From positions 62,001 through 126,000 of the forward strand of contig JAUCBJ010007166.1 of the NCBI GenBank assembly GCA_032718475.1: DNA of 64,000 bases, read 5' to 3'. The notes beneath the pieces were generated by a model, which saw only the letters and a list, made by a program, of their open reading frames with translations, was not told the origin of the DNA and ran no database searches. The DNA comes from Nemertoderma westbladi. Taxonomy: Eukaryota > Animalia > Xenacoelomorpha. The translations under genes and the position numbers were made by a program. Positions within the stretch are counted from its first letter, which is position 1, and every line of letters starts with the position of its first letter. This document shows positions 1,373-41,245 of this stretch, piece after piece.

Positions 1373-3030
1373 TTACTACTACTACTTGGTCGAGCGAACT
1401 CGGACAGTGGAAATGAGATCCTTCCAGGCTTCCCGATTCTCCATAGTTGTCGCAATTTCGTTTCTCCTAAGTTCAGTATCCCTTTCAAGTTGATCTATAT
1501 ATATTATGGCCAGTCGTCCACGACTACGCTTTCCATGAGTTGGTTGCCAGAAAAGTCGATCTGGTATGACCTCGTCTTTACTTCGCCAGCAGTGCCCACT
1601 GAATCGTAATCTGCGTTCATGGAGGGTGGTTGATACAGGTGGTATTGTACCATAAAGCTTGGCGTTTGTCATGTGTTGTCTCCAGCTGATGTTTAGGGCT
1701 GCCCTTAGTAGTCTTGTGTAGCAACCATCAATTCATTGTTGTTGTGATTTAGTCAGTGTCCAGGTCTCACCCCCATATAAAAATACACTTTCCACTGTGG
1801 CTCGAAGGAACGTAGTCTTCAGGTGCCTGGAGAGATCTGATTCCAGATGGTATCCATTTTTTATGGATGCATATATTTTTTGTGCATCTGCTAGGGTATT
1901 AGAGAGCAGGGCGATGTCATCCGCAAAGTCGGTGTCTGTGACTGTAGTTGCCGGATATCTACTACTTCTGCGTTCTTGAAGTGTGAATCCCAGGTCTTCA
2001 CCCTTTGTGGCCGTCCTCATTGCGTAATGCAGCACAATTACAAATAGTAATGGTGCTAATGTGTCACCTTGCAGTACGCCAGCCAGGATTGAGAAAAACT
2101 CAGTTTCACCATCTGGTGAGAGTACCTGCGCTTCTGTGTCACAATATAACAATCCAATGCCAGCAACAATTACTTCTGGTATTCCATAAGCTCTTAGGAT
2201 TTCAAGCATTTTACCTCTACGGATGGAGTCGAATGCCTTCTTGAAGTCCACAAAAGTCATGACAGCGGGGAGATTCTTTGACTTAATTCCTTCAATCAGT
2301 CTCCGTAGTGCAAGTATCTATTGTTGATCTACATGGTCGAAATCCGTTTTGGCTCTTACTCAGTAGTTTCTCTATGTGAGGCCTAATCCTATATAGAATC
2401 ATTTTATTGTATATTTTGGCAGGTACCACAATCTGACAGATCCCACGATAGTTTGTTGGTATGCCGAGGTCTCCTTTCTTGCGGAGAGGCTTTAGTTGAC
2501 CTTTAGTCCAAATTGGTGGTGGCTTTTCCCCTTTTAACATCCGGTTGCAAACATTCAATAATGGTCTGTTTAGCACTCCGGTTTTCCATACCTCCGCTGG
2601 GATTTCATCTAATCCACTTGCTTTATTATTGGACATGCTTTTTATGCTTCTTTGGAGTTCGGCAGGTGTGAAGTCCCCTGTTTCTATAGGTAGTGTCTTG
2701 TCATATATTTTCCTTGTTGGGCTGACCTCGATGTTTGGTGGCTGCCCAAGCACGTTGCTGAAGTGATTTGTCCACTTCCCAACACGTTCTTCAGGACTAT
2801 CGGCTTTGAGGCGCCCCTTTGCACAACTTTTCCGACCAGATACCTCATTTACAGTTTGCCAGGTAAGTCTTGATTGTTGCTGTATGTGAGCAGTTGTAAT
2901 TGCTTCAGTTTTATCCTGTATGTACTTTTCCTGGCTGATGTTGTAGGCCAATTTAAGATCGTCCTTAGCTTTCTCAACCTTGTTAATGTTTTCGGTTGTT
3001 GGTTGCTCGGTTTTAACTTTGTAGGCTATC
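1373..3030 (-). mobile_element. RTE-clade LINE, 5'-truncated and degenerate
   Basis: Minus-strand RT motifs KASGLDEIPAE, KKGDLGIPTNYRGI, QNGFRPCRST, FVDFKKAFDS, GVLQGDTLAPLLF, FADDIALL, LYGGETWTL, RRLRFSGHCWR. The element ends in a (TAG)n tail (TACTACTACTAC near 1373-1385 on +). Confidence 0.9.
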
Positions 3031-4066
3031 TTAAGATAGTGATGTGATGTTACTGGGGTCGAATATAGTGCTGTCTTTGAGGTCATCAGCGAAAAGATGA
3101 ATGAGCTGAGTGAGTAGAGTTGAAACATCATCCACACATCCAAGGAACAAGAAAACTCCATCAACACTTCCCTGAGGAACACCGCTGTCAACAGGTAGCC
3201 ACGGTGATGTTTTCCCACTGATGTTGATGACCACGCATTGGTATCTACAAGAGAGAGAAATGCCCGAAACCAATTTAATAACTTGCTGGTTATTCCATAT
3301 TCCAGTATTCCAAGGGCCTGCAATTTGACAATCAGTCTCTGGTGTGGCACTGAATCAAAGACTTTCTGAAAGTCCAAGTATGCAGTGATTACATGCGATC
3401 ATCTAGTACTTTGAACCAATGGAAATGGAAGATACAATCAAGTAGTTGTAGAGTGCATGCTGCATGATCGCCCTTTCTGGAAACCTTAATGGTCATCTAG
3501 GGTATAACAGTATAAGGTTATTTTCCTTCATTTAGCTGTATGTTTCATTGACAACGTTTTGTTCCATAACTTTGCAGACCTCTGATGTTAGACTGATAGA
3601 TCTGAAGTTTTCAAGCAAATATTTACAGTACTACCATTCTTAAATTGTGGAGAAATGTTGGCGAGCTTCCAATTAATTGGTTGGTAGGGCTCCTTCATTC
3701 ATGGAATTATTCAATAATGAAGCCAGGGGTTCAGCAATTGTATCAGATAGTGCTTTTATAACTTGTGGATAAACTTGATCAGGACCAGTAGCATCAGACC
3801 CTCTCATTTCGTTGATTGACTAAAGAACTAATTCATATGTGAAGTTGATGGTAGATATGCTTGAATTAATTTATTGAGAATAGAAAGAAGATGTAAAAGG
3901 CTGAAAGGTCTTCTTTTGTAAATGCAGTATATATGGAAATATTCATTTAAAAGTGCAGCATTTTCGATATCCTGATATCAGCTGTAGCAAACGAACCATC
4001 ATCCTTCCTGAGGCACTGTATTGCTGGTCTTGCCTTTGCCCGTATAAATTTCCAAAAGATTTTGGG
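3031..4066 (-). mobile_element. Decayed CR1/L2-group LINE ORF2 fragment (target of LTR element 1)
   Basis: DFQKVFDSVPHQRLIVKL, WLPVDSGVPQGSV, LFADDLK and NPKIFWKFIRAK in broken minus-strand frames. Confidence 0.75.
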
Positions 4067-4071
4067 GTTAC

Positions 4072-5346
4072 TGTAAAAGCTTCTGTGGGATATAACTGGC
4101 CCCTTTGCTTCGCAATCCAGTTTCCCCCCAGGCGCTGGAATACTCTAAAAAGGTTCTCTAACTGTATAAATATTCCCCTCGCCCTCAAGGTACCATTACA
4201 GGTGTTTTAACGGACATAAAAGTCATTTTGCTATATACGTGTTTTAGCGGACATGGTAAGACAAAAAACCTGCAATGCGGCAAATACCTTTCATAGCTTA
4301 GCCGTGATGATTCATATTACGACATCTAACAGCTGGTTGCTGACATGGAAACAGCCATTGGATGCATGGTTCTTTGTTTGGCTTGAGCCAATCAGAGCGA
4401 TTTTTCCTGTCGATGTGTAGCTTTTCGGTCGATCATAAGGAGTGTGTTCAGTCTTACTGTTTTTTCTTGATACTTTGTTGTTATTGCTGTCTAGGCCAGG
4501 AACAACGGCTCTAGAATCAATTCGTTTCATACTTTTAGAAGAAACATTGGTAGGCTAAAATTATAGAGCGTATGACTGTTATCTAATCAATTCAATGCAA
4601 TTCTTAACAATTTCATTCACAATTCAATACTTTGTTGTTATTACTGTTCAACATACATTATTATACTGCTATTTACTGTTGTGTTTGGTTGAATATTATT
4701 TGGAGAACATATATAAAGAACCCAAATTTCCCAATTTTCTTGATACACTACAGGTTAGAGAGACGGGTTATATATAGCGATTGCGACTTATATTGTTGTG
4801 GTTTGTAGTGAATTTAATGCTATTTGATAAGCACTACATTGGTCCGTTGCTATTCCCTTTATATATGATAAAATTCATTGACGGTCGGCAAATTAGTGAG
4901 CAGTATTGTGTGTTACCAGTAGTGTGCATGATTGTGATTGATAACTAAGCATTTCCTAAAGAATGCGCCTCATACGTGAATCATAAGCCTTACCGACTTA
5001 CCGTTGTGATTAGTATAAGTCATATCTCTGTTTACTTAGATAGAGCGCCACGTCCTAAAGGAACTGTTAATATTTCCCGAAAGTAAATAATATTAGTCAG
5101 AAATTAATTATTAACGATCAATCGAATAATACAATACAGTAAGCTTCACTGCAATAATAATTTAAGCCGACAGAATCCAGTCTCCCGGGATTATCCAGCG
5201 GGTGAATGGACGCGCACTAGGCTGGCTTCTGCTAATGTTGTGTTTATTGGTATTAAATATTTGTCTTCTTCTAAAGTATATTATAAACCAAAAGACATAT
5301 AAATTTTGGCAGGTTAAACTGCTAAAGGTCTTCAAAAGCGGGTACA
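4072..5346 (+). repeat. 5' LTR of element 1
   Basis: TGTAAAAGC...GGTACA; direct repeat of 15402-16676. Confidence 0.97.
4572..4582 (+). promoter_or_regulatory. Predicted transcript 5' end / self-primer of element 1 (ATGACTGTTAT)
   Basis: Exact reverse complement of the 11 nt following the 5' LTR. CCAAT-type boxes lie upstream (about 4357, 4388 and 4546). The TSS is inferred, not observed. Confidence 0.7.
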
Positions 5347-5357
5347 ATAACAGTCAT
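5347..5357 (+). promoter_or_regulatory. Non-tRNA primer-binding site of element 1 (ATAACAGTCAT)
   Basis: Abuts the 5' LTR, has no TGG start, and is complementary to 4572-4582. Confidence 0.75.
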
Positions 5358-5689
5358 TGACTTTATTGCAGTAAGCAATAAAGTTGAAAGTACCGATCGA
5401 CCGGTAAAACCTGAACCGGAACTTCTGTAGGTCAGTAGGCCCAACTGCCAGAACCGGTACTGCGGTAGGTCCGTAGGTCCAACTGCCAGAACTGGTACTT
5501 CTGTAGGTCCGTAGGCCCAACTGTCCTAACCGGTACTTCCAGTATAAGTACATTAGTATTATTCGATTTTGATTATTGCATACCGGTAGGCTGTTTAAGA
5601 GATTAGGGACTGTACACCCCTTGTTTCTTTTGGAGCTTACTTATTTCTGTTAGTTTTATTTACATGTAAGTTAATATTGAGCTGAAGAC

Positions 5690-6290
5690 GTGTAAGTCTG
5701 CTCAGATTGTTCAGATAATTGTAGGCCGGACTGTTGTCAGATTGTTGTTGGGTTTGGAGAGATTACGGCGTGTGTGGAGTTTGTCCGATAGAGTGCCAGT
5801 TAGTAAGTTGGGGCAGCCATTGCTGTAAGGTCAATCCCCTCTTAAAGAATAAGTCGTACTACCGTGTTAGAACGCATACTAACTAACAATTTTGGAATCT
5901 GCACATACTGTAGTTTATTTAGGCTTGACAGTATTCTGCCAGCGTTTTGGCTTGTGTTTGTTTGTGTGGTCTGTTCAGATACCGTAATAGTTATTACTCA
6001 GATATTTTGTAGGCTGGATTGTTGTCTAGCTATTATTAGGTCTGAAGAGATTGCTGCTTGTGTAGAGTTTGTTTGATAAAGTGCCAGTTAGTAAGTTGGG
6101 GCAGTCATAACTGTAAGGTCAATCCCCTCTTAAAGAATAAGTCGTACTACCGTGTTAGAACGCATACTAACTAACCGTTTTGGAATCTGCACATACAGTA
6201 GTTTATTTAGGCTTGGTGGTAGTCTGCCAGCATTTGGTCTGTATTTTGTTTGAGTATTCAGTACGGGTAGCGTAATATTTATTATTCAGA
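5690..6290 (+). repeat. 288-bp tandem duplication in the 5' UTR of element 1
   Basis: CTGTAAGGTCAATCCCCTCTTAAAGAATAAGTCG... occurs at 5823 and 6111. Confidence 0.9.
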
Positions 6291-7580
6291 GTTTATGCGA
6301 TTATTCGCAACATTCATGTCCCCAAGTTTATTCCTACAGTAATTGTGTTTGTTACACATCCGTTATAGTTAAATTAACCCCGGTACTACACGGGCTGCTT
6401 GGCGTAGGACAAGACTGGTGACTTTGTGCTCTGGTCACTCCAGCAGATGCCGTGGTTCTTTTAACTGTTCAAGTATATTTAACTACTGATTATTTGTTGT
6501 ACCAGTACTTGTACCTAATTTAGGGTTTAGTGTACAGTGCTTTCCGAAGTAATTAGTGTGTAGGCAGTATATTTGTGTTGTAAAGTGGTTAATAGGCACG
6601 CTGGATCTTGTAGTCCGCGGTAATTAACTTCTAGGTAGGAACACTCCGTGATACATAACGTAGTACCTATAGCGATACGGTTATAGGTCGTCAGGCGGTG
6701 GTATTTTCCTATCTGGACAGTGCAATATATTTACTACTACTTATTATTTTCAAATACCGTAGTACCCTGTCCGTTGTAATAACCAGAAATCTAACCCTTT
6801 GCTAGGCTGGTTTGTAGACTTCCTGTAAAATTACCCTAAAAATTCGTACGTAATATTTTTGTTGTGTTTAATTAGAGAATTAATCTCACCCGTATCGTAA
6901 GTAATTTGTAGTATTAAGTAACTTAGGTAAATTAGAATTATCTGTTTTAGTGTCCCATAGGTAGCACTTCACTGAGAGCGCACAGCTTCTGTGTAGTGAC
7001 TTCCCCCAGAAATAATAACATTTATTTCAAATATTGACAAAACCCTTTTTAAACGGGTATATATATATTATAAATCAACTCAAACGATTTATAAATAGTA
7101 GGCCTGCCATACAACAACTAGGTCTCAAAATCAGTTGGACTACTGCTTAAATAACGGTAACAAAGTAAGTTAAAGTAACCAAGTAATCCTAAAATATTCA
7201 GAAAATCAATTATTCTAAAATAATTGACATACCGGTATTTATCATAGGCTTATTATATTTATTTCTATAAATTTGAGCTGAAATCATACCGGTATTCTGT
7301 AATAATTCTAGTTCATAATTATACTTATATATACTACAAGTGTAAGCTCTATACCGGTATTCACGATAGGCCTATTATATATTTATATATATTTGTGCTA
7401 AATTTATATACCGGTACTCTGTGACAAACCTAGTTTACAATACTTATATATATTATAAGTGCATACCGGTATTCTAATATACTGCAATAAATTACCGGTA
7501 CTAGGCCAACGGTCATACTGAATTACTAGACTTGCTTTAACTGTAACTATAGCAGTAGGCATTCAACTGTATAGCTAAAC

Positions 7581-10500
7581 ATGTCTGACACTCAGCAAAA
7601 CCTGTCAGACAGTCTAATCGATACAACCATCTGTGACACAGATAGGAGTGTGGAGCGTTTAAGAAAGGAGTTCAGCTCACCTCCTACTGAAAGAAAAGTC
7701 ATCCCTCCAGTAGTGATATCGGACCCTAAGCTAATCCAACACCGTAGGTCTATCATCGGCACTCGGGCCCAAGTCAAACGGAACCAGGAAGCAGCTGGCC
7801 CACAGCAGCAACAGCCTAGTCAAGAAACTTGTTCCCAGCGATCAGACAGCTCCAGTAGTTCGGATACTGTCGAACTGACCCCCGAACGCGGATTGCAGAT
7901 GACGACTAAAGCCTACTCGGACCCCCTTCTCACCCTTCCTGCCGCAGTGCTAACAACTATATTGATTGCGGTGGAGGAACATCAAGCAGATTGGGCGAGA
8001 AATAAGCGAGCGACCCAAGATGATTATGCGGGATACGCCAGGGAAGAATTGATGTCTATTGTCGAGTCACAATGGAACTTTCCCGGACCCGGACTCCCGT
8101 TAGATCTGTCCGAGGCTACTTGGGAAGATATACACAGGATGGGAGTGGCTAAAGATACGATGGATCCAGCTGTTTGGAAGAGGTCGGCAGCAGGATATGT
8201 GCAGGGATTCTTCGGCTCCTTAGAGAGATTAGAAGAACAACTGTTTCGACAACCCCAAGGACCTCAAGAGCAGGAAGAACTGCTATATCAAGTACGCGAA
8301 AGAACCCTACGCATTCGACTAATCCTATCGGCTTTTGAGGAAACTTCCAAAAGAAGACAGGACACGTCGCTGCAGGTTGCTGTCAAAACTTGGTTCCAGC
8401 GGGTAGGTCTCCAAGTGCAAGAAACAGACCAGTGGAAATCCCAGCTGTCTGAGAGACTAACTCATGAAGAACCAACCGATGCCACCCTTTCTCAAGTGGA
8501 AGGCGAAGAGACCTCAGAGAAACCACGAACGAGAGACACCATCGACATTTATCTGTCCGACTATCAGCGATTCCTAGGAGACGAAGAGTTGAGGAGACGG
8601 CTGTCTGGACTTTCCCCCAATAGTGAAGGAACTCAGCGTGTGTTAGACTCAATCGATGCTGAAATGTTAGCTGCTAACCAAGCTGAGTTTGATGAAAAAC
8701 TCCGCCTCACTAGAGTCCAAGAAGAACTAGTAAAGAAAAAACGGATAGAGGACCGAAAGGCAGCTGCAGTAACAGCGGCAATGGCCGAAGTGGAAGCAGA
8801 AAGAAAGGCAGCTGCAGTAACAGCGGCGGCAGAAGCAGCAGCAGAAAGAGTAACAGCGGCGGCAGAAGCAGAAAGAAAGGCAGCGGCGGCAGAAGCCGAA
8901 GCAGAAAGAAAAGTGACTGGGGCAGCAGCAAAGGCAGTGGCAGAAGCAGAACGGAGAGCCTCTGAGGAGACTGCCCAACTGGAGTTGGAAAATCTGCAAG
9001 AGACGCAAGACAACATAAATAAACAGTTAACTGCTAGTCACATGCAGATGATGAGAAAATCTACTCCCAAACGCCAGGGATATACGTCATCGGAGGAAAG
9101 CGAAACCACCGATCCTGAAGGCGGAGGAAATAGATCTCGTCTAAGTCGGCGTAGAAAAACATCTTACCGTCACAAATTGCCTGATTTGCCCCCAGCTGTT
9201 AGAAGAAAACTAGCTAGCACAGACTTAAGTAGTATAGAACCTACAGATCAAATTATTAAGGTCAAAAGACTCCCTACTATAGTTGATGAGCCTGAAATAA
9301 TTAGGCCTGTCGTTCCCAAAGTCACACCTGTGCTAGAGACCCCTGTACTTCCAGAGCTTAACTCTAAGTTCCCTTTACACAGTACTACACTGCCTGTACC
9401 CGGTAGAACAGTCCATGAGAATATTCCTGTCCTGGAAGCTGAGAGAGAAATCAAAGATTTGTCTCCCGTCGTCCCACGTCAGCCCGCTACAATGTTGGCG
9501 ACTCCCGCTTCGGCGGTTGAGTGGGTAGAGGAGGGACGGCGGGGGATGAATCTCCTGCTCGGACAGATGCAGGAGACTGTCCACCAGCTTAAGGGAACAG
9601 TAAGGGAAAGTAGGGCCGAATTGCAAGAAGTGCAGCAAAGTATCGCGCTAGAACGCGACAAATTAGTCAATATACAAAAGGGAATACCAATACCCCCTGT
9701 AACATTGTGTCAACCTGTTAGGTCTGAAGTATTACATGCGCAAGGTGTGGAGCCTACACGCATCTATACTGCTAGTGAAGTTGAAACTCCTATAGCAAAC
9801 CCTATTAAGGGTGATTATAGACCTGTTATTAATGATATTCCCTATAGACCTGATAATGATCCGAGAAATTTATATACCGATAATTCGATATTAAATAACA
9901 CGATGGCCCAAGAAAGCTTTACGCGGCAGATGGCTAGAACAGAAGCCCTCCAAGCGGTCAAAGTGGGAGAGATCGTCAAATTCAATGGAGATGAGATGAA
10001 ATGGTTACCTTTCAACGAATATTACAAAGATAGTATACAAAACTCTGTACTATCTAACGAAGAGAAACTTAGGTTCCTCATCAAGTGCTTGGAAGGACCT
10101 CCCAGGTTAATGGCGTTAAAGTTTATTGGACATCCAGATGGATTAAGACAAGTTTGGGATACATTAAACATCAGGTATGGTAACAAAGATAACATAGCTA
10201 AGTATTTGTATGCAAAATTAGTAGCCCCCCGACACTTCCTTAGTAGCGGGATTATAGAGTTTTCTGATGAAATTCAGGAGATCTGTAGACAATTGGACTG
10301 GTTAGGTAAGTCTCATGAATATCAGAGTTCAATGGTTATTGGAGCAGTAGTCTCTACTTTACCAAAGGGTGGAGTATGTACACGCTGGGACAAGAAAGTG
10401 TTGTACATGAATGAACAACAACGACGAAGTCCTACTATGGCTGATCTCATGTCCTTCTTAGATGGTGAGGTAAAACTACAACTCATCAAGCAGTCCAGAG

Positions 10501-11831
10501 AGAAAACATCGGAAAATAAGGTAAGTGAGAAACCCTTTTTTAGGAAAAGGATAATACCAGTGTGTTATACTGACGACGGCGAAAGCCAAGCTTCTCAAGA
10601 AGAGGACAGCGGGAAAGACACAGCAAAATCTTACTATGACAACAAGACCTATAAAGACATAAGTAAATACAAGTCTCGAATCAGTGACAGGAGAGAACAG
10701 GTAACTACAACTCCTCCTACGTCTCCTAAGAGAATTCACGGAAGAAAGCCCGAAGAAAGAACGAGAGTGCATAACGTTACCCAAGGTAAGGTGAGTAACA
10801 TCAAACCAAAATGTGCGCTGTGCGACGGGCCCCACCGTTTGAGTGCGTGTGCTGAATTTCTAAAGAAATCCCCTGTAGACAGACGTACAGTCCTGTGGAG
10901 TAAGCGGTTATGCTATAATTGCCTCAGATCAGGACACCAACGGCGAACCTGTTACTCCGACGTAAAGTGTGCAAAGTGTGGCGCGAAACATCACATCTTG
11001 TTACACAGTGAGTTCGAACGAGACAACCCGAGTCAGGTAAGTGAGCCCGAACTACATGTCCAATTCAGTGATGTAAATGACACTGATCAAGAGTCTGAGA
11101 TGGAAGGATTCTATACTGACGAATTCTCCGACGCCAACGAATCCTGTTACCTAATAAATACCTCAGTGTATCGAGCACTTACTTATGAAAAGGACACCAA
11201 CAATGAGTTTCCCCCAACTACTTTTGCCAAACAACCATCTTGGAAAGCTCCAACTTCCAACGTAGGAATCAGAGAATTTCCTGTAGTGCAGGTAAGAGTT
11301 CATGGTCCTAACAAAAGTTACATAGTGAACGCCCTCCTTGACTCCGGCAGCACAGGAACATTCATCGATCAAGAACTAGCCGAAGATATTTTTGCTGGAC
11401 AACCCAAATTCCGGACTAAATTGAATATGTCAGGAATTATGCAGGTTTGGAAATCTACCCTAACGGCAGACTACTATGTAGGTGTGTTGTCCACCCCCCA
11501 GGATAAATTAGGAGCACAAGGTATAAGGTCGGTAAAAATGGTGGCTATAAAGAACTTCGCTGCTACCCAAGCAGACCTTTATAATTGGGACGAGGATGAG
11601 AGCATCCAACATCTTAAGATACCTCGATTCCAGACAGATTATCCTGGAGTGCAAATACTCATCGGCCAAAACGCGCATGAGGCGCTCGAGACATTGGAGA
11701 AACGGCCTGCTCAACCGCAGCCACTACAAACCTATGCGGTAAGAACTAGAGTAGGTTGGTACTTCACTGGCCCTTCCCGTAGAACTCTCAAAGAGAGATT
11801 ACCTCAACAACAGGTATACCAAGTAAAGTAA
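7581..11831 (+). CDS. BEL/Pao Gag-protease polyprotein (1416 aa)
   Basis: Ala/Glu-rich coiled-coil N-terminal half; DUF1759-like Gag (KFNGDEMKWLPF...LSNEEKLRFLIKCLEG...LNIRYG); three Cys/His knuckles (CALCDGPHRLSAC, CYNCLRSGHQRRTC, CAKCGAKHHILLH); aspartic protease ALLDSGSTGTFI...ILIG...TRVGW. Confidence 0.92.
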   Translation: MSDTQQNLSDSLIDTTICDTDRSVERLRKEFSSPPTERKVIPPVVISDPKLIQHRRSIIGTRAQVKRNQEAAGPQQQQPSQETCSQRSDSSSSSDTVELTPERGLQMTTKAYSDPLLTLPAAVLTTILIAVEEHQADWARNKRATQDDYAGYAREELMSIVESQWNFPGPGLPLDLSEATWEDIHRMGVAKDTMDPAVWKRSAAGYVQGFFGSLERLEEQLFRQPQGPQEQEELLYQVRERTLRIRLILSAFEETSKRRQDTSLQVAVKTWFQRVGLQVQETDQWKSQLSERLTHEEPTDATLSQVEGEETSEKPRTRDTIDIYLSDYQRFLGDEELRRRLSGLSPNSEGTQRVLDSIDAEMLAANQAEFDEKLRLTRVQEELVKKKRIEDRKAAAVTAAMAEVEAERKAAAVTAAAEAAAERVTAAAEAERKAAAAEAEAERKVTGAAAKAVAEAERRASEETAQLELENLQETQDNINKQLTASHMQMMRKSTPKRQGYTSSEESETTDPEGGGNRSRLSRRRKTSYRHKLPDLPPAVRRKLASTDLSSIEPTDQIIKVKRLPTIVDEPEIIRPVVPKVTPVLETPVLPELNSKFPLHSTTLPVPGRTVHENIPVLEAEREIKDLSPVVPRQPATMLATPASAVEWVEEGRRGMNLLLGQMQETVHQLKGTVRESRAELQEVQQSIALERDKLVNIQKGIPIPPVTLCQPVRSEVLHAQGVEPTRIYTASEVETPIANPIKGDYRPVINDIPYRPDNDPRNLYTDNSILNNTMAQESFTRQMARTEALQAVKVGEIVKFNGDEMKWLPFNEYYKDSIQNSVLSNEEKLRFLIKCLEGPPRLMALKFIGHPDGLRQVWDTLNIRYGNKDNIAKYLYAKLVAPRHFLSSGIIEFSDEIQEICRQLDWLGKSHEYQSSMVIGAVVSTLPKGGVCTRWDKKVLYMNEQQRRSPTMADLMSFLDGEVKLQLIKQSREKTSENKVSEKPFFRKRIIPVCYTDDGESQASQEEDSGKDTAKSYYDNKTYKDISKYKSRISDRREQVTTTPPTSPKRIHGRKPEERTRVHNVTQGKVSNIKPKCALCDGPHRLSACAEFLKKSPVDRRTVLWSKRLCYNCLRSGHQRRTCYSDVKCAKCGAKHHILLHSEFERDNPSQVSEPELHVQFSDVNDTDQESEMEGFYTDEFSDANESCYLINTSVYRALTYEKDTNNEFPPTTFAKQPSWKAPTSNVGIREFPVVQVRVHGPNKSYIVNALLDSGSTGTFIDQELAEDIFAGQPKFRTKLNMSGIMQVWKSTLTADYYVGVLSTPQDKLGAQGIRSVKMVAIKNFAATQADLYNWDEDESIQHLKIPRFQTDYPGVQILIGQNAHEALETLEKRPAQPQPLQTYAVRTRVGWYFTGPSRRTLKERLPQQQVYQVK

Positions 11832-12245
11832 TGGGAAGTGGAGAGCAGTGAGGTGGACGACCCAACTGAGGGAACACCATACTCCTCAGATAATGACGGT
11901 ATTAACTCCAATGTAGATCAATGGAGACATTGCCTTGGGACGATTAATCCAGCCGACATCGCTTCCAGAGGAGCAACTCCTCAAGAACTGATAGATACTC
12001 CAGGCTGGTTAGGTGGATCCGACTTCTTAAGTAAAGAAGAAGAAGAATGGCCTCCTCATCTTACCCCGGCGGAGATTAGACAGGCCAAGGGAGCGGAGAA
12101 AATAATACAACAACTCAATTGCCCAGCTGGTCGTTTATGTTTACTGGAAAGAGACCGAAAACTGTCCGGAAACTATGGAAGGCAAGATACTCTTCCTACG
12201 ACCACTTCCCTAATCCGACAAATATCTAGGGACTCCATAACGTAA
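11832..12245 (+). pseudogene. In-frame continuation after a TAA: remnant of the BEL RNase H / peptidase A17 C-terminus
   Basis: WRHC..TINPADIASRG..WLGGSDFL..WP motif. Same frame as the 7581 ORF; element 2 has GAA at the stop position. Confidence 0.8.
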
Positions 12246-13873
12246 TAACATATGGAGTGGGCGTGTGACTATATCATTTTATAGTTGTTTTTATTTTATA
12301 TTTATGTATGTATTATTATGTAATTTTATTATAATCGTTTTCTTTAATTTTATTTAGTAGAATGTTATTTTAGTGATTATTTAGTAGATTAGTGCAATAT
12401 ATTAGTGTTTATTACGTACGTAATTACTTATAATATATATTTAGTGCGACGGCGAGAAATAATTATTTTTCTCTTTCCTTACTGTCCGTATCATATTATA
12501 AATACGTGACTACAGTAAGATGAAATGTCCGTACTTATTAAAGTACAATAAAGCCACTACTATATTCAAGTATTATTGGTAGGCAGAGTATTAGGAATGC
12601 AAAGTTCAGATCCTCGTGTCTCGGCTAAGCCAAGCTCTGGGTAGACCTTGGAAACGACTTGCCTCTTCACACTGACATTGCTTCGTGCGATATTGCTCTT
12701 CTACCTTATATTAAATAATACATATAGTAGCGTGATGTCCCTCTAACAGTAGCGTAAAAACGCAAATAAATCTGTTAAACTTTTTGACCATCTGTAATTC
12801 TAGTCGATTAAGATATCGCGGCACCCACCGATATACTTGAAAGACAAATTCTAGAATCAATGGTTAACGTCCCCAGACAAGTTCTGGAATAAATCGGTGC
12901 CCATCTTAAATATTAATTAATATTTATTAAAATCTGTAAAATTCAGATCCGTTAACAATTCTAGTCGATTAAGATATCGTAGCACTTCCCGATACTCTTA
13001 AAAGACAAATTTCATAGAATTAAGGATCCTATGTCCCCAGACCTGCTCTGGAATCAAATTGTGTCAATTTTAACATCAAATAATAAAATTCACGGGAATA
13101 AATTTAAATTCATATTTTTAAATGAATTTCATAAATTGTCATTTTGTACAATTTATAACATTCCCAAAATTCCATTAATTAATAGATCATGGGAGCGGAG
13201 ATTCATCCTATTGAGTGCATTAGAGTGCGAGAATCTCCAACATATAGTCAATAGCCGATAAAATTAACAAAATCATGCATAAAGAGGATATTGACAATTA
13301 AAGAATTATTATTAAATAGCATCCCAGATCTGTATGCATGAGAATTACCCTAATTCTACCGCTAGCATTCCATAATGTCACCATAGCAACACCCACGCTA
13401 GAATTAGAAGCAAGTTAAAAGAACAATAGAAAGCTTGTCCCATTGCCTAGCATAGAGAACATAGCACACTGTTAGTATCCAAGGATACACAGTAATCAAC
13501 GTGACATTCTGGAAGGCACTGACTAACGGACAAATGGCCTGTGTGTGTGCAGTTATTGACAGTTGTGTGGAATTTGTGCGTTTATAGGTGAATGTTACTG
13601 CTAAAGTATGTTTACAGTAGCTAGTCGCAATTGTAAAAATAGCCCGACTCTCCTATAGAAAGAACCTAAGTGGATCCAAGCCTTTGGGACGGACAGTGGA
13701 GTGACTTGTGCCGGTTATCGTTGTCGTGCTGTTGCTACATGTTGGCGTAAACACCGCGACGACGGTACATCGGCGCTGAGAATCCCACTGTCCGGGGGCA
13801 AAGATAAATAGGCAGCGACGCCCGCTCGCTTAAATACAAACTTATTTGATATTAATAAACTCAGATAGCAGAT

Positions 13874-15323
13874 ATGACGGAGTTGATAGAAGATGATCTT
13901 GGTATTAGGGAGCGATATACTCTACCTTTGCAAGCATTTGTGGATAGCTTAATACGCGGTGAAGCCGATCCAACCATTACGGAGGACGATGGTCGTTATA
14001 TCGAACCGCCGATGTCCCAAGAGCAACTTGCGCGTGAATTGGACTATCGAAAATCCACCTCTCGCTATACGCATCGTAATAGTACGTATATGGACTTCCT
14101 AACTACCGGCCATCCTATCGATTTACATGATACGGACGATGTAGACACCGAAAGGGAAATGGTTCTATTTAAATATCATACCCAGCGGCGTCGTAACGAT
14201 AAACCGAGATTAGATCACGAAAATTCTATTCGTAACAGACTGGGAAGATGAACCAATATGCCTAGAATCTGAGGAGATTCAGCCTATCGCGCCCCGGACC
14301 AGCGACAACGATTACATCATAGAATGGTATCAAGGCCCACAGTGTCTCACTGCGTACGATTATCGCCATGCCAACTATGTTTCTAGGCAACGTTGTCGGT
14401 TATGCGCATCGAGAGACCACGATACGCCCATGGACACCAACGTCCGCTGTTCCTATTTCCAAGAACAACCGACTATGGAAATTTATTGCGCATATTGCAG
14501 ACTCAATAACCTGCATATCTTTGCGGTTTGCCCTCAATTTATGACTCAATGTCACCATTGTCAACTAAAGGGACATGCTAGTTTCGACTGCCCTTTTAAT
14601 CACGATTTGGAAAGCGTAGATGAAATGATCACACTGCGTTACATCAGAGCTTGGGAAGCGAACGCTGATTTACATTGTGATTCGCGCCATCGCTATTATC
14701 CCGGACGCGCTTACGAAGGAGTTTATGCGTTCCATCCTTATTTATTCGCTTCTGTTGAACAGGAATCACGCATATCGAGTTACGAGCTACTGAAGCGCGT
14801 CGGAGAATGTATTTCAACTAAATTCGTACGCAAATTTCTCAGGAGTGTTAATCCTAGCGACCTTCATTCCTATAACTTAATCAATTATATCCGTCAGGAT
14901 CCGGACTATGGAGACTTGTTTGTTAACTCACATCCCGAGTTGCAGGAAGTACATCGAAGGCCTTACGAATACCGAGCCCGCGAACGCGAGTTGGAAAGGA
15001 CCATTAAACCCCGGAAGTTTCTAACTGCCTATGGTCCACCCACGGCCCTCATTCAGACCACTCGAAAAGGACCCGTAAGAGCGGCTGTCTTGAAACGAGC
15101 TCTCAAAGCCGTTAGACCCCTCTCACCTGACGTTGATGTCAATCAACCCGGTACTTCGACTGGCGGATACACCGACCATAATCCTACACCCTCTGATGCA
15201 ATCATATTGCACCCTTCACCCAGGAGTTATAGCCCTCCTTGTAAAGTGGCTCGCCCCAAAGAGAAAAGGACTCTTGCTAGCTTTAAAAAACTGCGTAAAC
15301 GCTGTCCGCGCAAGAAAGACTAA
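13874..15323 (+). pseudogene. Accessory 3' ORF of element 1 (about 480 aa, CCHC-type knuckles), split by a frameshift near 14243
   Basis: The frame of ORF 14430-15323 is open back to 14244 (EDEPICLESEE...CRLCASRDH). It contains CAYCRLNNLHIFAVC and CHHCQLKGHASFDC and a basic C-terminus. Both ends are homologous to element 2 ORFs. Confidence 0.7.
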
Positions 15324-15401
15324 CTGTTTAGAGTATTTACGTATATTAGAAACTGTGATTTTGTATATTTTATAGACTCAAATCCCATTTTCTGGGAGCG
15401 G

Positions 15402-16676
15402 TGTAAAAGCTTCTGTGGGATATAACTGGCCCCTTTGCTTCGCAATCCAGTTTCCCCCCAGGCGCTGGAATACTCTAAAAAGGTTCTCTAACTGTATAAA
15501 TATTCCCCTCGCCCTCAAGGTACCGTTACAGGTGTTTTAACGGACATAAAAGTCATTTTGCTATATACGTGTTTTAGCGGACATGGTAAGACAAAAAACC
15601 TGCAATGCGGCAAATACCTTTCATAGCTTAGCCGTGATGATTCATATTACGACATCTAACAGCTGGTTGCTGACATGGAAACAGCCATTGGACGCATGGT
15701 TCTTTGTTTGGCTTGAGCCAATCAGAGCGATTTTTCCTGTCGACGTGTAGCTTTTCGGTCGATCATAAGGAGTGTGTTCAGTCTTACTGTTTTTTCTTGA
15801 TACTTTGTTGTTATTGCTGTCTAGGCCAGGAACAATGGCTCTAGAATCAATTCGTTTCATACTTTTAGAAGAAACATTGGTAGGCTAAAATTATAGAGCG
15901 TATGACTGTTATCTAATCAATTCAATGCAATTCTTAACAATTTCATTCACAATTCAATACTTTGTTGTTATTACTGTTCAACATACATTATTATACTGCT
16001 ATTTACTGTTGTGTTTGGTTGAATATTATTTGGAGAACATATATAAAGAACCCAAATTTCCCAATTTTCTTGATACACTACAGGTTAGAGAGACGGGTTA
16101 TATATAGCGATTGCGACTTATATTGTTGTGGTTTGTAGTGAATTTAATGCTATTTGATAAGCACTACATTGGTCCGTTGCTATTCCCTTTATATATTATA
16201 AAATTCATTGACGGTCGGCAAATTAGTGAGCAGTATTGTGTGTTACCAGTAGTGTGCATGATTGTGATTGATAACTAAGCATTTCCTAAAGAATGCGCCT
16301 CATACGTGAATCATAAGCCTTACCGACTTACCGTTGTGATTAGTATAAGTCATATCTCTGTTTACTTAGATAGAGCGCCACGTCCTAAAGGAACTGTTAA
16401 TATTTCCCGAAAGTAAATAATATTAGTCAGAAATTAATTATTAACGATCAATCGAATAATACAATACAGTAAGCTTCACTGCAATAATAATTTAAGCCGA
16501 CAGAATCCAGTCTCCCGGGATTATCCAGCGGGTGAATGGACGCGCACTAGGCTGGCTTCTGCTAATGTTGTGTTTATTGGTATTAAATATTTGTCTTCTT
16601 CTAAAGTATATTATAAACCAAAAGACATATAAATTTTGGCAGGTTAAACTGCTAAAGGTCTTCAAAAGCGCGTACA
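15402..16676 (+). repeat. 3' LTR of element 1
   Basis: Direct repeat of 4072-5346, preceded by a PPT-like TGGGAGCGG. Confidence 0.97.
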
Positions 16677-17439
16677 GTTACTAGGGCAGTAGGCAGGTAG
16701 GGGCATCACTTGCAATTTTACATTCGTAGGAAACCTTCTGTTTAATTACTGAAATACATTTGATTCTAGCTTGCTTGTAGGCTGGGAATGAAGAAAGTGT
16801 TTTTATATATATAAATTATAAATATAATATAGGCCTAACTATAATATATAATACAAACAGACAAATACAATAATACACAAATACCTATATATTATTCTAT
16901 AGTATGAACTATAAACGTTACATACCCCAAGAAGATGCATGCACAGTGGTATCTATACAGCTATATGATATATGTACTGCTTACTGTATGTACAGTATGT
17001 AGTTAGAGGCATATAATGATAGAAAGCACAACAACAAAGCCGTTGAAATTTCAGCTCACAGTGCAGTTTTCAGTTATATCAGTTATCATCAAACCATCTA
17101 AACTGTTATGAAATGTGCAATGTTTCCCTATCGGGAAATTTCTGATATCATTGTGAGAGAAATCCATGGTAAATTTCCGTATAGGGAAATATATGCATGT
17201 TTCCCTATAGGGAAACAGGCAAAGTTAATTTTCGCCTGTCTGTAAAACCGCCAGGGTAGTAGTTTGCTGCCTTGGGGCAGTACTGTAGTTATATTGAAGA
17301 TAGGGTAGAGGTGAATGACCTAGTATATCTCACTTAATGCGCTATGTCCTCAGTGAATGCGCCATAGCGATTATGCAAAAATTTCCCTATTGGGCTAATT
17401 TCCCAGACTGCAAAGGATGACAATTTGCGTTCCTGATGG

Positions 17440-18394: not shown

Positions 18395-19596
18395 TGTTCG
18401 CGCTTTCAGACCTTTGGCAGTTTAACCCGCCAAATTAAGATGTCTTCTAGATATTAAATCGCTTTTTAGCCTATGACAAGTATTTGATTCACTACACTAG
18501 TCGAAACCAATCCGTGCGCGACCATTCACCCGCTGGATATTCCCGGGAGATTGGGTTCGACGGTTTAATTTTATTGCTATGTAAGCTTAATGTATTATTC
18601 GACTGACAGTATTATATAATCTCTGACAATATTATTTACCTTCGGGAATATTAACAGTTCCTTTAGGACGTGGCGCTTTATCTATATAAACAGAGTTATG
18701 ACTTAAACTACTCACAACGATATGGCTTAATTATAATTCACATATATGGCGCATTCTTTAGGAATTGCTTCTTTAACAGACTCGCTCATACGCAATGCTG
18801 CACAATACTGCACACTAATCTGCCAATCTTCACTGATTTTAGTCACATATAAAAGGAACACAGACTGACTCATGTAGGGTCTATCAAATAACATTAGATT
18901 CACTTCAAACCACTTTAACATAAGTCACAATCGTTATTGGTAACCTTTCTCTCTTACCTTCGGTATATCAAGAATATTGGGTGTCGGGGTTATTTCTCGT
19001 TATTCCAATATAATAATTCATCAACAAATATAATGAATAACCGACAACAAATAGCAGTATGCAGTATTCACAGATCAATCGTGCCAGTTTGTTTTGATAT
19101 TTACAGAGTTTAAAGCCAGGTTGTTTGATGCGTAATTGCAGCCAGTTAAAGGATATATGTCCTTGTAATTAAACCTACTAGTGTTGAGCTAAAAAGCATA
19201 AAACATAAAACACTACAAAGCCGTTCTTTCGTGGCTTTGAAAAACTCGTGACTACTGCTCTATACGAGGATACCAACTCCCTTATTCCACGAAGCTCCCG
19301 TTCAACACAGAGAAAGAGCAGTGAGATAGGAAATTTTCAGTTCAGTACTCTGTGATAGGTCAAAATCAAGGCTAACTCAAATTCTATTGGGAGATACAAA
19401 ACAAGGCTATGACGCAACCTCCCTAGGCTTGTTGGCCGATTAAACAGAGCCCAGATGCCTGCGTACAGCAAATCAGCCAATAAGCTGGTAACTTGCACTA
19501 TTTTTAGCTGTAGATCACTTTGAGAGTATTCTTAGCGACTGGGGGGGAACTGGCCAACAAGGCAAACGAATCAGTTATCCCACAAAAGCTTTTACA
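18395..19596 (-). repeat. 3' LTR of element 2
   Basis: Direct repeat of 29950-31151, adjacent to the PPT at 19597-19610. Confidence 0.97.
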
Positions 19597-22849: not shown

Positions 22850-25800
22850 TTACGTTATGGAGTCCCTAGATGTTTGAAGGATTAGGGAGGTGGTCGTGGG
22901 AAGAGAATCTTGCCTTCCACAGTTTCCGGAGAGTCCTCCATTCCCTTCCGATAAACACAAACGACCGACTGGGTGATTGAGTCGCTGCATCCTGAATACA
23001 ATTCCAGGTTTCCTCTTCGTCCTGGAATAGTGACGATAGAAACATCGCTCAAAGTATATGACGGCGTCACAAAGCCGATTCCAGGAGCTATAGTGGTCCG
23101 TCGCTCTCTGCAGGAGAGGTGAGAGTCCCTGCGAGACATCTGATGTTCCAGAGCTCCAATCGCTCTCTCTGATCTTCATGAAGGATCCACTCGCGGTGGG
23201 GAGGTCCAGATCCACGGCGTCGTCCCTGGCAATATGTAATACCGACAGATCTGTCCCGGGTTCAAATAACTCCGCTCCACCCGTCCTGGTTTTAGGTTTA
23301 ACTTTCTCCGCTCCCTTGGCTGGTCTAATCTCAGTCGGAGTAAGATGGGGAGGCCATTCATCCTCCTTACTCAGGAAGTCGGGTTCACCTAACCGGTCTG
23401 TAGTATCTGTCAGTTCTTGAGGAGTTGCTCCTCTGGAAGCGATGTCAGTTGGATTAAACTTCTTGGGGCAATATCTCCATTGATCTACATTGGAGCTAAG
23501 ATTGTCATTATCTGAGGAGTGTGGTGTTCCCTCAGTTGGGTCGTCTCCCTCACTAGTATCATCTTCCCATTCACTCACCTGGCAGACGCGATCTTGAAGC
23601 AGTCTTTCCCTGAGCGTTCTACGGGAAGGTCCAGTAAGGTACCAACCTACTCTAGTTCTTACCGCATAGGTCTGTAGTGGCTGCGGTTGAGCAGGCCGTT
23701 TCTCTAATGTCTCCAGCGCCTCATGCGCGTTTTGGCCGATGAGTATTTGCACTCCAGGATAATCAGTCTGGAATCGAGGTATGTTAAGATGTTGGATGCT
23801 CTCATCCTCGTCCCAATTATAAAGGTCTGCTTGAGTAGTAGCGAAGTTCTTTATAGCCACCATTTTCACTGACCTTATGCTGTGTTCTCCTAGTTCGTCC
23901 TGGGGGGTGGACAACGCTCCTACATAATAATCAGCTGTTATTGTAGATTTCCAAACTTGCATAATGCCTGACATGTTGAGCTTAGTTTGGAACTTGGGTT
24001 GTCCAGCAAATATATCTTCGGCTAGCTCTTTATCGATGAATGTTCCTGTACTACCGGAGTCAAGGAGGGCGTTCACTACATAACTCCTCTCAGGTCCGTG
24101 AACCCTTACTTGCACCACAGGAAACTCTCGGATCCCTACATTGGAAGATGGCTCTTTCCAAGATGGTTGTCGCTCAGAAGTAGTTAGAGTAAAGTCGTTA
24201 TCTGGATCCTTTTCATAGGTGAGTGCTCGATACACTGCGGTATTTATCATGTAACAGGATTCGTTTTCGTCGGAGAACTCGTCTGTATAGAATCCTTCCA
24301 TCTCAGATTGATCAGTGTCGTTCACATCACTGAATTGGACATGTAGTTCGGACTCACTTACCTGACTCGGGCTGTTTCGTTCGAATTCCGTGTGCAACAA
24401 GATATGATGTTTTGCGCCGCACTTTGCACACCTTGCGTCGGAGTTACAGGTTCGCCGTTGGTGTCCTCGTCTGAGGCAATTATAACACAACCGCTTATCC
24501 CACATGACTTCACGTCTATCCTTTAGTGATTTCCTCAGGAATTTATCACACGCATTTAAACGGTGGGGCCCGTCGCACAGCACACATTTGGGCTTGATGT
24601 TACTTACTTTAACATGTGCTGTGTGGTGCACACTTGTTCTTTCCTCGGGCTTTCTCACCTGAATTCTTTTAGGAGACGTAGGAGGGGTTTTTTGTACCGG
24701 TTCCCTTCTGTCATTGGGTCGAGACTTGGATTTACTTACCTGATCTTTAGGCATTTTATTGACATAAGATCTGTCAGTGTCTTTCCCGCTGTCCTCTCCT
24801 TGAGAAGTTTGGCTTTCACCGTCGTCGGTATAACATACTGGTATTACCCTTCTCCTAGAAACGGGTTTCTCACTTACCTTACTTTCCGCTGTCTTCTCTC
24901 TGGACTGCTTTATGAGCTGTAATTTCACCTCGCTATCCAGGAATGACATGAGATCAGCCATGGTAGGGTCTCGTTGTTGTTGTTCCATCATATATAACAC
25001 CTTCTTGTCCCAGCGTGTACCTACTCCACCCTTGGGCAAAGTAGATGCTAAGGCTCCTACAACCATAGAATTCTGGTATTCATGAGACTTACCTAACCAA
25101 TCTAGTTGTCTACAGATCTCCTGAATCTCATCGGAAAACTCTATAATCCCGCTGCTAAGAAACTTTCGGGGCGCCATTAATTTCGCATATAAATACCTAG
25201 CTATGTTAGTCCTATTACCATACCTGATGTTTAGTGTATCCCAAACTTGTCTTAATCCGTCTGGATGTCCAATAAACTTTAACGCCATTAACTTGGGAGA
25301 TCCTTCCAAGCACTCGATGAGGTATCTAAGCTTTTCTCCATTAGATAGTACAGAGTTCTGTATGTTATCTTTGTAATATTCATTAAAAGGTAACCATTTC
25401 ATCTCATCTCCATTGAACTTGACGATCTCTCCAACCTTTACCGCTTGCCGGGCTTCGGTTCTAGCCATTTGACGCGTAAAACTTTCTTGGGCCATCGTGC
25501 TATTTAATATCGAGTTATCGGTATATAAATTTCTCGGATTATGATCCGGTCTATAGGGAATATCACTATCAACAGGTCTATAATTACCCTTAATAGGGTT
25601 CACTATAGGAGTTTCTACTTCGCTAGCAGTATAGATGCTTGTAGGCTCCACACCTTGCGCATGAGATACTTCAGACCTAACGGGTTGACACATTGTTACA
25701 GAGGGTGGTGGTATACCCTTTTTTAAGTTTACTAATTTATCGCGTTCTAACGCGATACTTTGCTGCACCTTTTGCAACTCTAACCTACTTTCCCTTACTG

Positions 25801-27766
25801 TGCCCTTGAATTGCTGGACAGTCTCTTCCAACTCTCGGACCTGTTGGGAGGAGCGTATCCGATTCTCCTTCATCTCTCCAAGGAGAATATCCATCCCCCG
25901 CCGTCTCTCGTCTACCCAATCAACCGCCGAAACGGGATCCGCCAACGTCGTAGCGGGCAGACGAGGGACAACGGGCGACAAATTTGGAATATTTCGCTCG
26001 GGGTCCAGGACTTGAACTGTCTCCTGGGCAGTTCTACGGGGCACAGGTAGCTTAGTGCTATGCAGAGGGAATTTAGAGGTAGTTTCAGGGAGCACAGGTG
26101 TGTCTATCACCGAAGGGGTGATTTCAAGAACAGGCCTAATTATTTCAGGCTCATCTACTATAGTAGGGAGTCTTTCTATTTTAATTATTTGGTCTGTGGG
26201 CTCTGTACTACCTAAGTTGGTGTTATTTAGTTGCCTTCTAACAGCTGGAGGCAAATCAGGCAATTTCTGACGGTGGAATGTTCTTTTACGTCTACTTAGA
26301 CGAGATCTATTTCCCTTGCCTTCAGTATCGGTGGTATCGCCTTCCTCAGATGATGTATATCCCTGTCTTTTGGGAGTAGATCGATTCATCATCTGCATAT
26401 TACTAGCTGTTAACTGTTTATTTATGCAGTCTTGATTCTCCTGAATGTTTTCCAATTCTAATTGGGTGGTTTCTTCAGCCGCTCTCCGTTCTGCTTCTAC
26501 CACTGCCGCTGCCACTTTTGCCTCTGCCGCTGCCTCTGCCGCTGCCGCCTTTCTTTCTGCTTCTGCAGCTGCCACTGCTGCTGCTACTGCCGCTGCCTTT
26601 CTGTCTTCTATGCGTTTTTTCTTTACTTGTTCTTCTTGTTCTCTAGCTATGCGGAGTTGTTCATCGAATTTAGCTTGGTTCGCCGCTAACCTATCCACAT
26701 CAATCGCATCTAACACGAGTTTGGCTCCTTCGCTATTAGGGCTAAGTCCCTTTAACCTTCTCCTCAACTCTTCATCTCCCAAAAAACTGATAGTCTGACA
26801 GATAGATATCAATGGCATCCTTCTTATGCGGTTTCTCTGCCGTCGCTTCACTTTCCACTTGGGAAAAAGTAGCGTCCGTCGATTCTCCATGGGTTGAGCG
26901 CTCCTCCAACTGAGCTTTCCACTGAGCTGCTCCTTGAACCTGGCGACTCACCCGTTGAAACCAAGTTTTTACGGCAACTTGCAACGACGTGTCTTGTTTT
27001 CTTTTAGAAGCCTCCTCAAAGATAAGATTAGCCTAATCCTCAAAACTCTTTCTCTAACTTGATAAAGCAGCGATCCCTGCTCTTGAGGTCCTTGAGGTTG
27101 TTGAAACAGTTTTCTCTCTACTCGCTCCATAGAGCTGAAGAATCCCTGGGCGTATCCGGCTGCGGACCTCTTCCATACAGCTGGATCGATGGTTTCCTTG
27201 GCTACTCCCATCCGGTGTATGTCTTCCCAGGCAGCTTCTAATAAATCAAACGGGAGTCCGGGTCCGGGGAAGTTCCATTGCGACTCGACAATAGACTTCA
27301 GTTCTTCACTCGTGTATCCCGCGTAACTATCTCTAGTTGACCGTTGACTTCTCGCCCAATCGATCTGGTGTTCTTCCACCGCGATCAATAACCCAGCGAG
27401 CACGGCTGCAGGAAGGATGAGAAGGGGATCCGTATAAACCGCATCCGTCATCTCTGCTCTGCGCTCGGGTGTCAGCTCTACAGTATCCTCACTACTGGAG
27501 CTGCTGGGCCGCTGAGGAATAAGTTCTTGACTAGCGGGTTGTTGCTGTTCCGCTGCCTTTTGGTCCCGCTTGACCTGAGCTCGAGTGCCTATGATAGACC
27601 TACGATGTTGGACCAGCCTAGGTTCTGTTATTACTACTGGAGGGATGACCTTCCTCACAGTGGGAGGTGAACTGAACTTACGACCAGACGGTTGTACATC
27701 TCTATCTGAGTCGCAGATAGTTACATCTAATAAACTGTCTGACAGGTTCTGCTTAGTATCAGACAT
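22850..27766 (-). pseudogene. BEL/Pao Gag-protease polyprotein of element 2, broken by two small deletions
   Basis: Collinear with the element 1 ORF. Apparent 4-nt (near 27020) and 2-nt (near 26787) deletions with a stop at 26969-26971 between them. Knuckles, ALLDSGS and NPTDIASRG are retained. Confidence 0.9.
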
Positions 27767-29099: not shown

Positions 29100-29700
29100 A
29101 AATATTACGCTACGCGTACAAACTACTCAAACAAAATACAGACCGAACACTGACAGACTACTATCAAGCCTAAACAAACTACGGTATATGCAGACTCCGA
29201 AATGATTAGGGAGTATGCGCTCTAACCCAGTAGTGCGACTTATTCTTTAGTTGGGGGTTTACCTTACAGCGTTCGCTGCCCCTACTTCCTAACCGTACTT
29301 AATCAGACAAATGATCTACACACACTGCAATCCGTTCAGACCTAATAACAGCCGGACAACTATCCAGCCTACAAATTATCTAAATAAAATTATACGCTAC
29401 CCGTACAGACTTACACAAACAAAGTACAGACTAAACGATGGCAGACTACTCTCAAGCCTAAATAAACTACAGGACATGCAGACTCCGAAATGATTAGGGA
29501 GTATGCGCTCTAACCCAGTAGTGCGACTTATTCTTTAGTTGGGGGTTTACTTTACAGCAATGGCTACCCCAACTTCCCAACCGTTCTTTATCGGACAGGT
29601 GACCTACACACACTGCAACTCGTTCAGACTTAACAGCAATCAGACAACAGCTCAGCCTACAAATTGTCTGTACAATCTGATCAGGCTTACACGCCTTCTG
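29100..29700 (-). repeat. 288-bp tandem duplication in the 5' UTR of element 2
   Basis: CAGACTCCGAAATGATTAGGGAGTATGCG... occurs at 29191 and 29479. Confidence 0.9.
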
Positions 29701-29938: not shown

Positions 29939-29949
29939 ATATCCTTTAA
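29939..29949 (-). promoter_or_regulatory. Non-tRNA primer-binding site of element 2 (TTAAAGGATAT on -)
   Basis: Abuts the 5' LTR and is complementary to ATATCCTTTAA on the minus strand at 30711-30701. Confidence 0.75.

Positions 29950-41207: not shown

Positions 41208-41245
<38 letters not shown>

Follow-up and report, generated by a model that had tools for sequence, protein, structure and literature searches.

In Tf1, the primer is the first 11 nt, which RNase H cuts between nt 11 and 12, according to the accessible portions of PMC7175516 and PMC4600332. Self-priming has so far been demonstrated in Tf1 and predicted in a few Gypsy and Copia lineages. The initial annotation of the DNA analysed here tied the mechanism to the Tf1/sushi group. 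It is indeed described there (PMC6317226, PMC4600332), but the accessible text of PMC6317226 also predicts it for the Gypsy Tcn1 clade and the Copia TAR lineage. As the same annotation stated, BEL/Pao elements are described as tRNA-primed: the ICTV account of the Belpaoviridae gives an 18-nt primer-binding site (PBS) for tRNA-Arg or tRNA-Gly (PMC8742986). We found no paper on self-priming in BEL/Pao, with Repbase reports and subscription journals lying outside the search. Cer7, a BEL-group element of Caenorhabditis elegans, reportedly has its own tRNA-like primer, which would be a different mechanism. In the available parts of the papers that mention BEL, Pao, and self-priming together, the self-priming passages concern other groups. 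The words primer, PBS, and tRNA are absent from the available text of a BEL/Pao survey (PMC3118150), as are PBS and tRNA from that of the Sinbad paper (PMC554778), and the excerpts of PMC13524379, PMC3286476, and PMC8220671 hold nothing further on the question.

The window (the whole stretch of DNA that was analysed, 64,000 nt) contains two related LTR elements in head-to-head orientation, E1 on the plus strand and E2 on the minus strand (Table 1). The LTR pair of E1 has 6 differences (99.5% identity), and that of E2 has none. In both elements, the protease leads straight into an RNase H stub; RT, integrase, and the greater part of RNase H are missing. Because this junction is common to E1 and E2, we infer that the missing parts were lost in a shared ancestor. 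The two elements are nonautonomous, young, and recently inserted. The extra 3' ORF of E1 gave no match in a Pfam search. Its look-alikes in the Atlas are zinc-knuckle proteins (best score, 0.86), which we treat as a lead, and its product could be an accessory RNA-binding protein. A broken region of E2 (~21228-19700, minus strand) is related to this ORF.

Table 1. Coordinates of features of E1 and E2 in the window
Feature	Position	Strand	Remarks
E1 5' LTR	4072-5346	+	1275 nt, TG..CA ends
E1 3' LTR	15402-16676	+	1275 nt
E1 target duplication (GTTAC, 5 bp)	4067-4071 and 16677-16681	+	
E1 GTAGG anchor	4550-4554	+	11-mer begins 22 nt past its first G, in E1 and E2 alike
E1 candidate self-primer (11-mer)	4572-4582	+	second copy at 15902-15912
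E1 LTR segment predicted to pair with leader (alternative U5-leader stem)	5142-5157	+	bulged; possible in E2 too
E1 predicted hairpin near LTR end	5304-5327	+	kept in E2; putatively U5-IR-like
E1 PBS position	5347-5357	+	pairs perfectly with 4572-4582, abuts LTR end directly
E1 predicted leader hairpin directly past PBS	5357-5387	+	AATAAA in stem; similar one in E2
E1 Gag-protease ORF	7575-11831, ATG 7581	+	long N-terminal extension, DUF1759, zinc knuckles, aspartic protease
E1 RNase H C-terminal stub	11919-12060	+	beyond stop, same frame as Gag-protease
E1 extra 3' ORF	14214-15323	+	369 aa, Cys/His clusters, zinc-knuckle-like (lead)
E1 polypurine tract	15394-15401	+	abuts 3' LTR directly
E2 5' LTR	29950-31151	-	1202 nt
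E2 3' LTR	18395-19596	-	1202 nt
E2 candidate self-primer (11-mer)	30701-30711 (12 nt with 30712)	-	3' LTR copy at minus 19156-19146
E2 PBS position	29938-29949	-	11-12 nt, pairs perfectly with minus 30712/30711-30701
E2 Gag-protease-RNase H stub	22850-27799	-	two frames, 27799-26969 and 26947-22850

Tandem repeats of ~290 nt occupy part of the 2.2-kb leader of both elements (5711-6290 and 29090-29670), and shorter repeats lie near 7229-7474 and 12795-13085. We looked for a clean target duplication at the E2 flanks and found none. A partial LTR of a third subfamily (31151-31538, plus strand) lies inverted relative to the E2 5' LTR and is followed by a run of ~24 C. This partial LTR has no left part, which, together with the missing target duplication of E2, suggests that an insertion into an LTR was later altered by deletion or recombination.

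Elsewhere in the window, long satellite arrays lie at ~37000-41400 (14- and 21-nt units) and 45400-50600. By eye, 41616-45131 (minus strand) is a long open LINE-like frame with endonuclease and RT motifs, and LINE-like fragments occur at 1733-3398 and 51002-52220 (both minus strand). A piece at ~50614-51589 recurs in inverted orientation at 55290-56518, and the two enclose an ORF at 52745-53641. The uninterrupted frame at 61560-62570 (minus strand) contains what we take, by eye, to be a DHHC palmitoyltransferase motif, and it could be either an intronless gene or a retrocopy. ARAGORN found no tRNA in the window, and Rfam gave no match over 4000-32000 (E value, 0.1).

Several features place E1 and E2 in BEL/Pao. 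The Gag of each matches PF03564 (DUF1759; E values, 1e-12 and 3e-13), and the protease scores fall under the Pfam cutoff. The best homologues of their proteins carry BEL/Pao domains at low identity; Gag-protease searches returned distant relatives only, with 24 to 37% identity among the best 150. The E2 RNase H stub matches 75 of the 101 BEL/Pao loci described below. TG..CA LTRs and a polypurine tract are present, and the target duplication is found in E1 only. By DUF1759, the RNase H stub, and these homologues, the assignment to BEL/Pao appears to hold. Membership in Tf1/sushi (Ty3/gypsy chromoviruses) was considered and rejected, as the Gag is of the BEL/Pao type and the likeness would be one of mechanism only. 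Searching with the RNase H stub for an autonomous partner gave 0 of 38 candidates, which is weak evidence. No match to a conserved LTR 20-mer was found in metagenome or viral contigs, and the protein alignment had no match in viral contigs.

We found no TGG in the 30 nt past either 5' LTR, as the non-TGG PBS proposed in the initial annotation requires. Thus, E1 and E2 are not canonical tRNA-primed members of BEL/Pao. The same annotation reported that the 11 nt following each 5' LTR (extendable to 12 nt in E2) are the exact reverse complement of an 11-mer within that LTR, and both matches were confirmed, each beginning at offset 0 from the LTR end. The primer-PBS helix is purely Watson-Crick, with 11/11 pairs in E1 and 12/12 in E2. 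It had also been claimed that the 11-mers differ at 5 of 11 positions and that the PBS compensates every difference. This is correct: the 11-mers have 6 of 11 letters in common, the PBS pair likewise, and all five changes are matched. When PBS and LTR were swapped between E1 and E2, at most 5 to 7 nt remained complementary, and the duplex energies were -0.5 and +0.9 kcal/mol, versus -12.4 and -11.6 kcal/mol for the true pairs. Covariation inside the window was examined in two complete copies only.

The 11-mers were said to lie in a homologous context. Around this site, the LTRs of E1 and E2 are ~50% alike. The 40 nt upstream of the E1 11-mer find their best ungapped fit in the E2 LTR exactly in register (23/40; runner-up, 19/40), and identity just downstream of the 11-mer falls to 12/40. 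A gapped global alignment puts the 11-mers out of register, and homology of the site therefore rests on the ungapped anchor test. The register and the GTAGG spacing hold, but the AATTA motif cited in support is offset by one base in one element relative to the other. The GTAGG anchor may be a promoter element. A spliced E1 primer (donor 4578, acceptor 4753; 10 nt) was rejected as coincidence, because its donor is weak and E2 lacks a GT at that place.

Four hairpins are predicted near the PBS, each with 1 or 2 G-U pairs. The primer-PBS helix lacks G-U pairs while these neighbours have them, which is expected if the sequence is copied and does not simply fold. We folded the RNA in nine ways overall. 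For an RNA spanning the 11-mer through the first 60 nt beyond the LTR, the predicted primer-PBS pairing probability was ~0.7 for E1 and 1.0 for E2. Lengthening the leader to 150 or 400 nt lowered it to ≤0.01, and starting E1 30 nt further upstream gave 0. The predicted support for the long-range helix depends, then, on the fragment folded. The U5-leader stem gave duplexes of -17.7 and -13.8 kcal/mol. An AATAAA lies ~30 nt beyond the LTR in both leaders (5377, plus strand; 29917, minus strand), within the stem of the predicted leader hairpin. Alternative pairing between this stem and the LTR segment at 5142-5157 would make an RNA switch or a hidden poly(A) signal possible.

A conserved TATA or AATAAA was sought in the E1 and E2 LTRs, and none was found; the E1 LTR has no AATAAA whatever. 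In E1 and E2, the primer lies 762 to 775 nt before the LTR end, compared with ~50 to 220 nt after splicing in most of the relatives described below. Donor- and acceptor-like sites are aligned in both LTRs (4754 and 5040, plus strand; 30512 and ~30236, minus strand), and an intron between them, downstream of the primer, could shorten the long R-U5. Run X4 (presumed RNA) had zero cover over 4513-4683 and no GT-AG joint, and it is uninformative on expression.

We also looked at variation within the family. In two DNA runs, summed contig depth over the LTR, which is not a copy number, was orders of magnitude above that of the flank; this points to a large and diverse E1/E2 family. In Logan contigs of run X1, E1-like cover was ~16,000 at 4570-4626 and 44,000 at 5355, versus several hundred thousand in the flanking sequence. 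In a second contig mapping, it was <1,000 just past the 11-mer. Because cover in two runs is lower over both the 11-mer region and the PBS than in the sequence beside them, both sites vary within the family. Such variation is not expected of a tRNA-binding site. The first contig mapping contained a PBS variant, 5355 C>T, for which 4574 G>A had been predicted beforehand as the matching LTR change. At the 45% threshold of the second mapping, neither 4574 G>A nor the control, 5355 C>T, was among the changes listed.

We then compared E1 and E2 with distant relatives. Alignment of 20 BEL/Pao polyproteins yielded 79 metagenome loci and 22 loci in prokaryote assemblies (101 in all). An LTR-pair search at 80 of the 101 gave the 5' LTR end in 17, and 15 were kept: L064 was omitted because it duplicates the family of L065, and L074 because its LTR start could not be located (its best complement was 4 nt). 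The loci in prokaryote assemblies (L080 to L101) are BEL/Pao elements, several with both LTRs, and are most likely host DNA binned with symbionts. None of the four elements with a TGG had a self-complement (best, 4 to 6 nt). In contrast, a perfect self-complement of 10 to 15 nt at offset 0 to 3 was present in 8 of the 11 elements without a TGG. The other three matched under looser rules: L089 reached 11 nt once the acceptor rule was relaxed, and L082 and L084 paired at 10 of 11 positions. This bears out in relatives the covariation that the initial annotation had put forward for checking. However, the self-complement is not a property of the E1/E2 family alone: it marks a large BEL/Pao clade, mostly by way of a splice junction. 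Seven of the eight perfect cases (L004, L005, L018, L065, L068, L080, and L081) pair across a GT-AG junction inside the LTR, and the eighth, L049, is contiguous.

Pseudo-PBS positions equalled the true value in 0 of 552 cases in each of these eight elements. Swapping PBS and LTR among the relatives gave 11 nt in 2 of 272 pairs, both between families with a common PBS core. The sisters L080 and L081 have exchanged three letters on both sides of the pairing. The splice rule was tuned once after the first pass, so a blind scan of 12 further loci, for which the LTR start alone was known, is the cleaner test. Here, matches of at least 11 nt occurred at 10 of 241 ACA ends versus 10 of 2,873 other positions. 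Nine of the 12 loci had a match and L013, L016, and L059 had none; L015 and L040 repeat known families, and the L012 match implies a doubtful 1.7-kb LTR. Altogether, GT-AG-junction primers are predicted in L004, L005, L018, L019, L031, L039, L051, L056, L065, L068, L080, L081, and L089. The autonomous relatives with such primers, from other animals, have predicted LTR introns of ~75 to 450 nt. The paired length is 11 nt, as in Tf1 (PMC7175516), in 10 of 18 families, 7 of the 18 having been picked at ≥11 nt, and in 11 of the 18 families the pairing starts with A (background, 0.25; P = 0.001). A pyrimidine-purine start is not enriched (7/18; P = 0.15), and a TATA-like motif was seen in 1 of the 18. 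Pairing over 11 nt and an initial A in most families suggest a fixed 5' end.

In an RT-RNase H tree (96 rows; FastTree, midpoint root, no outside outgroup), the TGG elements make up a separate clade, and every self-complementary element falls in the other large clade. The contiguous elements L049, L075, and L012 are nested among spliced ones, which suggests repeated intron loss. In a Gag-protease FastTree phylogeny, whose rows do not include the named BEL, Tas, Pao, Sinbad, Suzu, Dan, and Flow references, E1 and E2 form a long branch (~1.6) that falls within neither the TGG clade (support, 1.0) nor the core self-complementary clade (0.99). Their mean Gag-protease identity is 0.22 to 0.25 to every group. 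Their position could reflect independent origin, a shared origin deep in the tree, or a long-branch artefact. The initial annotation had proposed a self-priming BEL/Pao lineage, possibly an independent origin of the mechanism. The priming reading is well supported by the covariation in the window and by the relatives, and BEL/Pao membership appears to hold; an independent origin is not supported, because E1 and E2 are a long unplaced branch.

We propose that E1 and E2 probably prime minus-strand synthesis as Tf1 does, with an 11-mer from their own RNA. A primer that is self-derived in some form, whichever it is, can be put forward with considerable confidence. On the Tf1-like model, the transcript would start at the 11-mer, for which the initial annotation named 4572 and 30711, or just before it, and its 5' end would fold back ~770 nt onto the PBS, aided by the hairpins on either side. 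An autonomous partner would provide an RT in trans, whose RNase H would cut after about nt 11, and the freed primer 3' end would be extended into U5. In Tf1, going by the title of one study, the primer is said to stay on the cDNA. Plus-strand synthesis in E1 and E2 would then copy the primer back and rebuild the PBS from the LTR. Such copy-back would carry LTR changes into the PBS, which would explain free drift with pure Watson-Crick pairing. We infer that the contiguous primer of E1 and E2 and the splice-junction primer of the relatives are two states of one system. There is perhaps an even chance that self-priming is normal in much of BEL/Pao and maybe old, with a clade that splices its LTRs, primers that have repeatedly become intronless, and E1/E2 as a contiguous, deep-branching form with a 770-nt fold-back.

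Other readings of the complementarity have to be weighed against this model. A chance match is hardly credible. The LTRs are AT-rich, and internal 11-mers other than the PBS find LTR complements (8/10,045 and 6/10,343, the PBS included), but dinucleotide shuffles of the LTR contained the complement in only 15 of 20,000 (E1) and 26 of 20,000 (E2) trials. To this ~0.001 per element are added the offset of 0, the homologous site, the five compensated changes, and the recurrence across a clade, and chance is largely refuted by the comparative set. It is also very unlikely that the partner of the PBS is half of a host tRNA or another small RNA of the host, with the LTR match being secondary. Half-tRNA primers do exist in Copia lineages, according to the accessible part of PMC6317226. 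However, the PBS letters differ by family, each set fitting its own LTR (2/272 swaps at 11 nt), and a host RNA can neither track such drift nor account for the LTR copy. ARAGORN found no tRNA in the window, and Rfam gave no match over 4000-32000 (E value, 0.1).

The pairing might instead be a structural helix serving packaging, dimerisation, or a translation/replication switch, with priming by a leader hairpin, a protein, or something else. Conserved hairpins and the alternative U5-leader stem flank the site, and fungal GalEa Copia elements, which lack a PBS, have a conserved hairpin site (PMC5445492, accessible portion). We consider this reading distinctly unlikely, given that the pairing starts precisely at the end of the LTR, the point from which DNA synthesis has to proceed, is free of G-U in E1 and E2, unlike its neighbours, and is absent from the TGG elements (0/4). 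A further alternative keeps an own-RNA primer but does not take it from the capped first 11 nt of the molecule being copied: the transcript would begin upstream, or a second or shorter LTR transcript would act in trans, and cleavage would make the 3' end alone. This accounts for all of the complementarity equally well. It suits the lack of a promoter signature at 4572, the distant PBS, and the instability of the fold-back helix in longer folds, and a short LTR-leader RNA could terminate at the conserved AATAAA that lies 30 nt beyond the LTR. A longer primer should permit longer pairing, though, and the limit of ~11 nt with A first in most families makes it unlikely too.

If E1 and E2 are self-primed as proposed, all three LTR-retrotransposon superfamilies would have tRNA-independent members. 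The view that self-priming preceded tRNA priming, found in the accessible portion of PMC3601003, could then be tested against several origins. BEL/Pao elements annotated without a PBS would be explained, and annotation tools would gain a simple new rule. Escape from tRNA-fragment silencing would be implied. The relatives would link host splicing with primer formation, and were self-priming normal in BEL/Pao, the ICTV statement on tRNA would be valid for one branch only.

Like Tf1 and Tf2 of S. pombe, Tj1 of S. japonicus, and the Tf1/sushi Ty3/gypsy elements, as the accessible text on these groups presents them, E1 and E2 have an 11-nt PBS after the 5' LTR that is complementary to the LTR. They also share with the Tf1/sushi group, on the same partial sources, the lack of a tRNA site and a hairpin near the LTR end, which in E1 and E2 is predicted. 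Unlike Tf1, they belong to BEL/Pao, have a primer ~770 nt from the PBS, and lack an RT of their own; their transcript start and cleavage are predicted. Copia TAR (Houba and Osr-1) and Tcn1 elements were recognised by a complement of at least 10 nt lying 0 to 5 nt past the LTR (PMC6317226), and E1 and E2 both carry one. Those are plant and fungal elements of other superfamilies, and the accessible portion of that paper does not mention a splice-junction form. With the Belpaoviridae, E1 and E2 share a DUF1759 Gag, a protease, an RNase H C-terminal motif, ~1.2-kb TG..CA LTRs, a polypurine tract, and, in E1, a 5-bp duplication; they differ from the ICTV description in having no tRNA PBS and in the deletion of RT and integrase. 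They are like the splice-junction BEL/Pao relatives in having no TGG and a perfect self-complement of ~11 nt at offset 0 to 3. In contrast to the intron-split primers of those relatives, the primer of E1 and E2 is contiguous, as in L049 and L075, and the two elements lie outside their Gag-protease clade.
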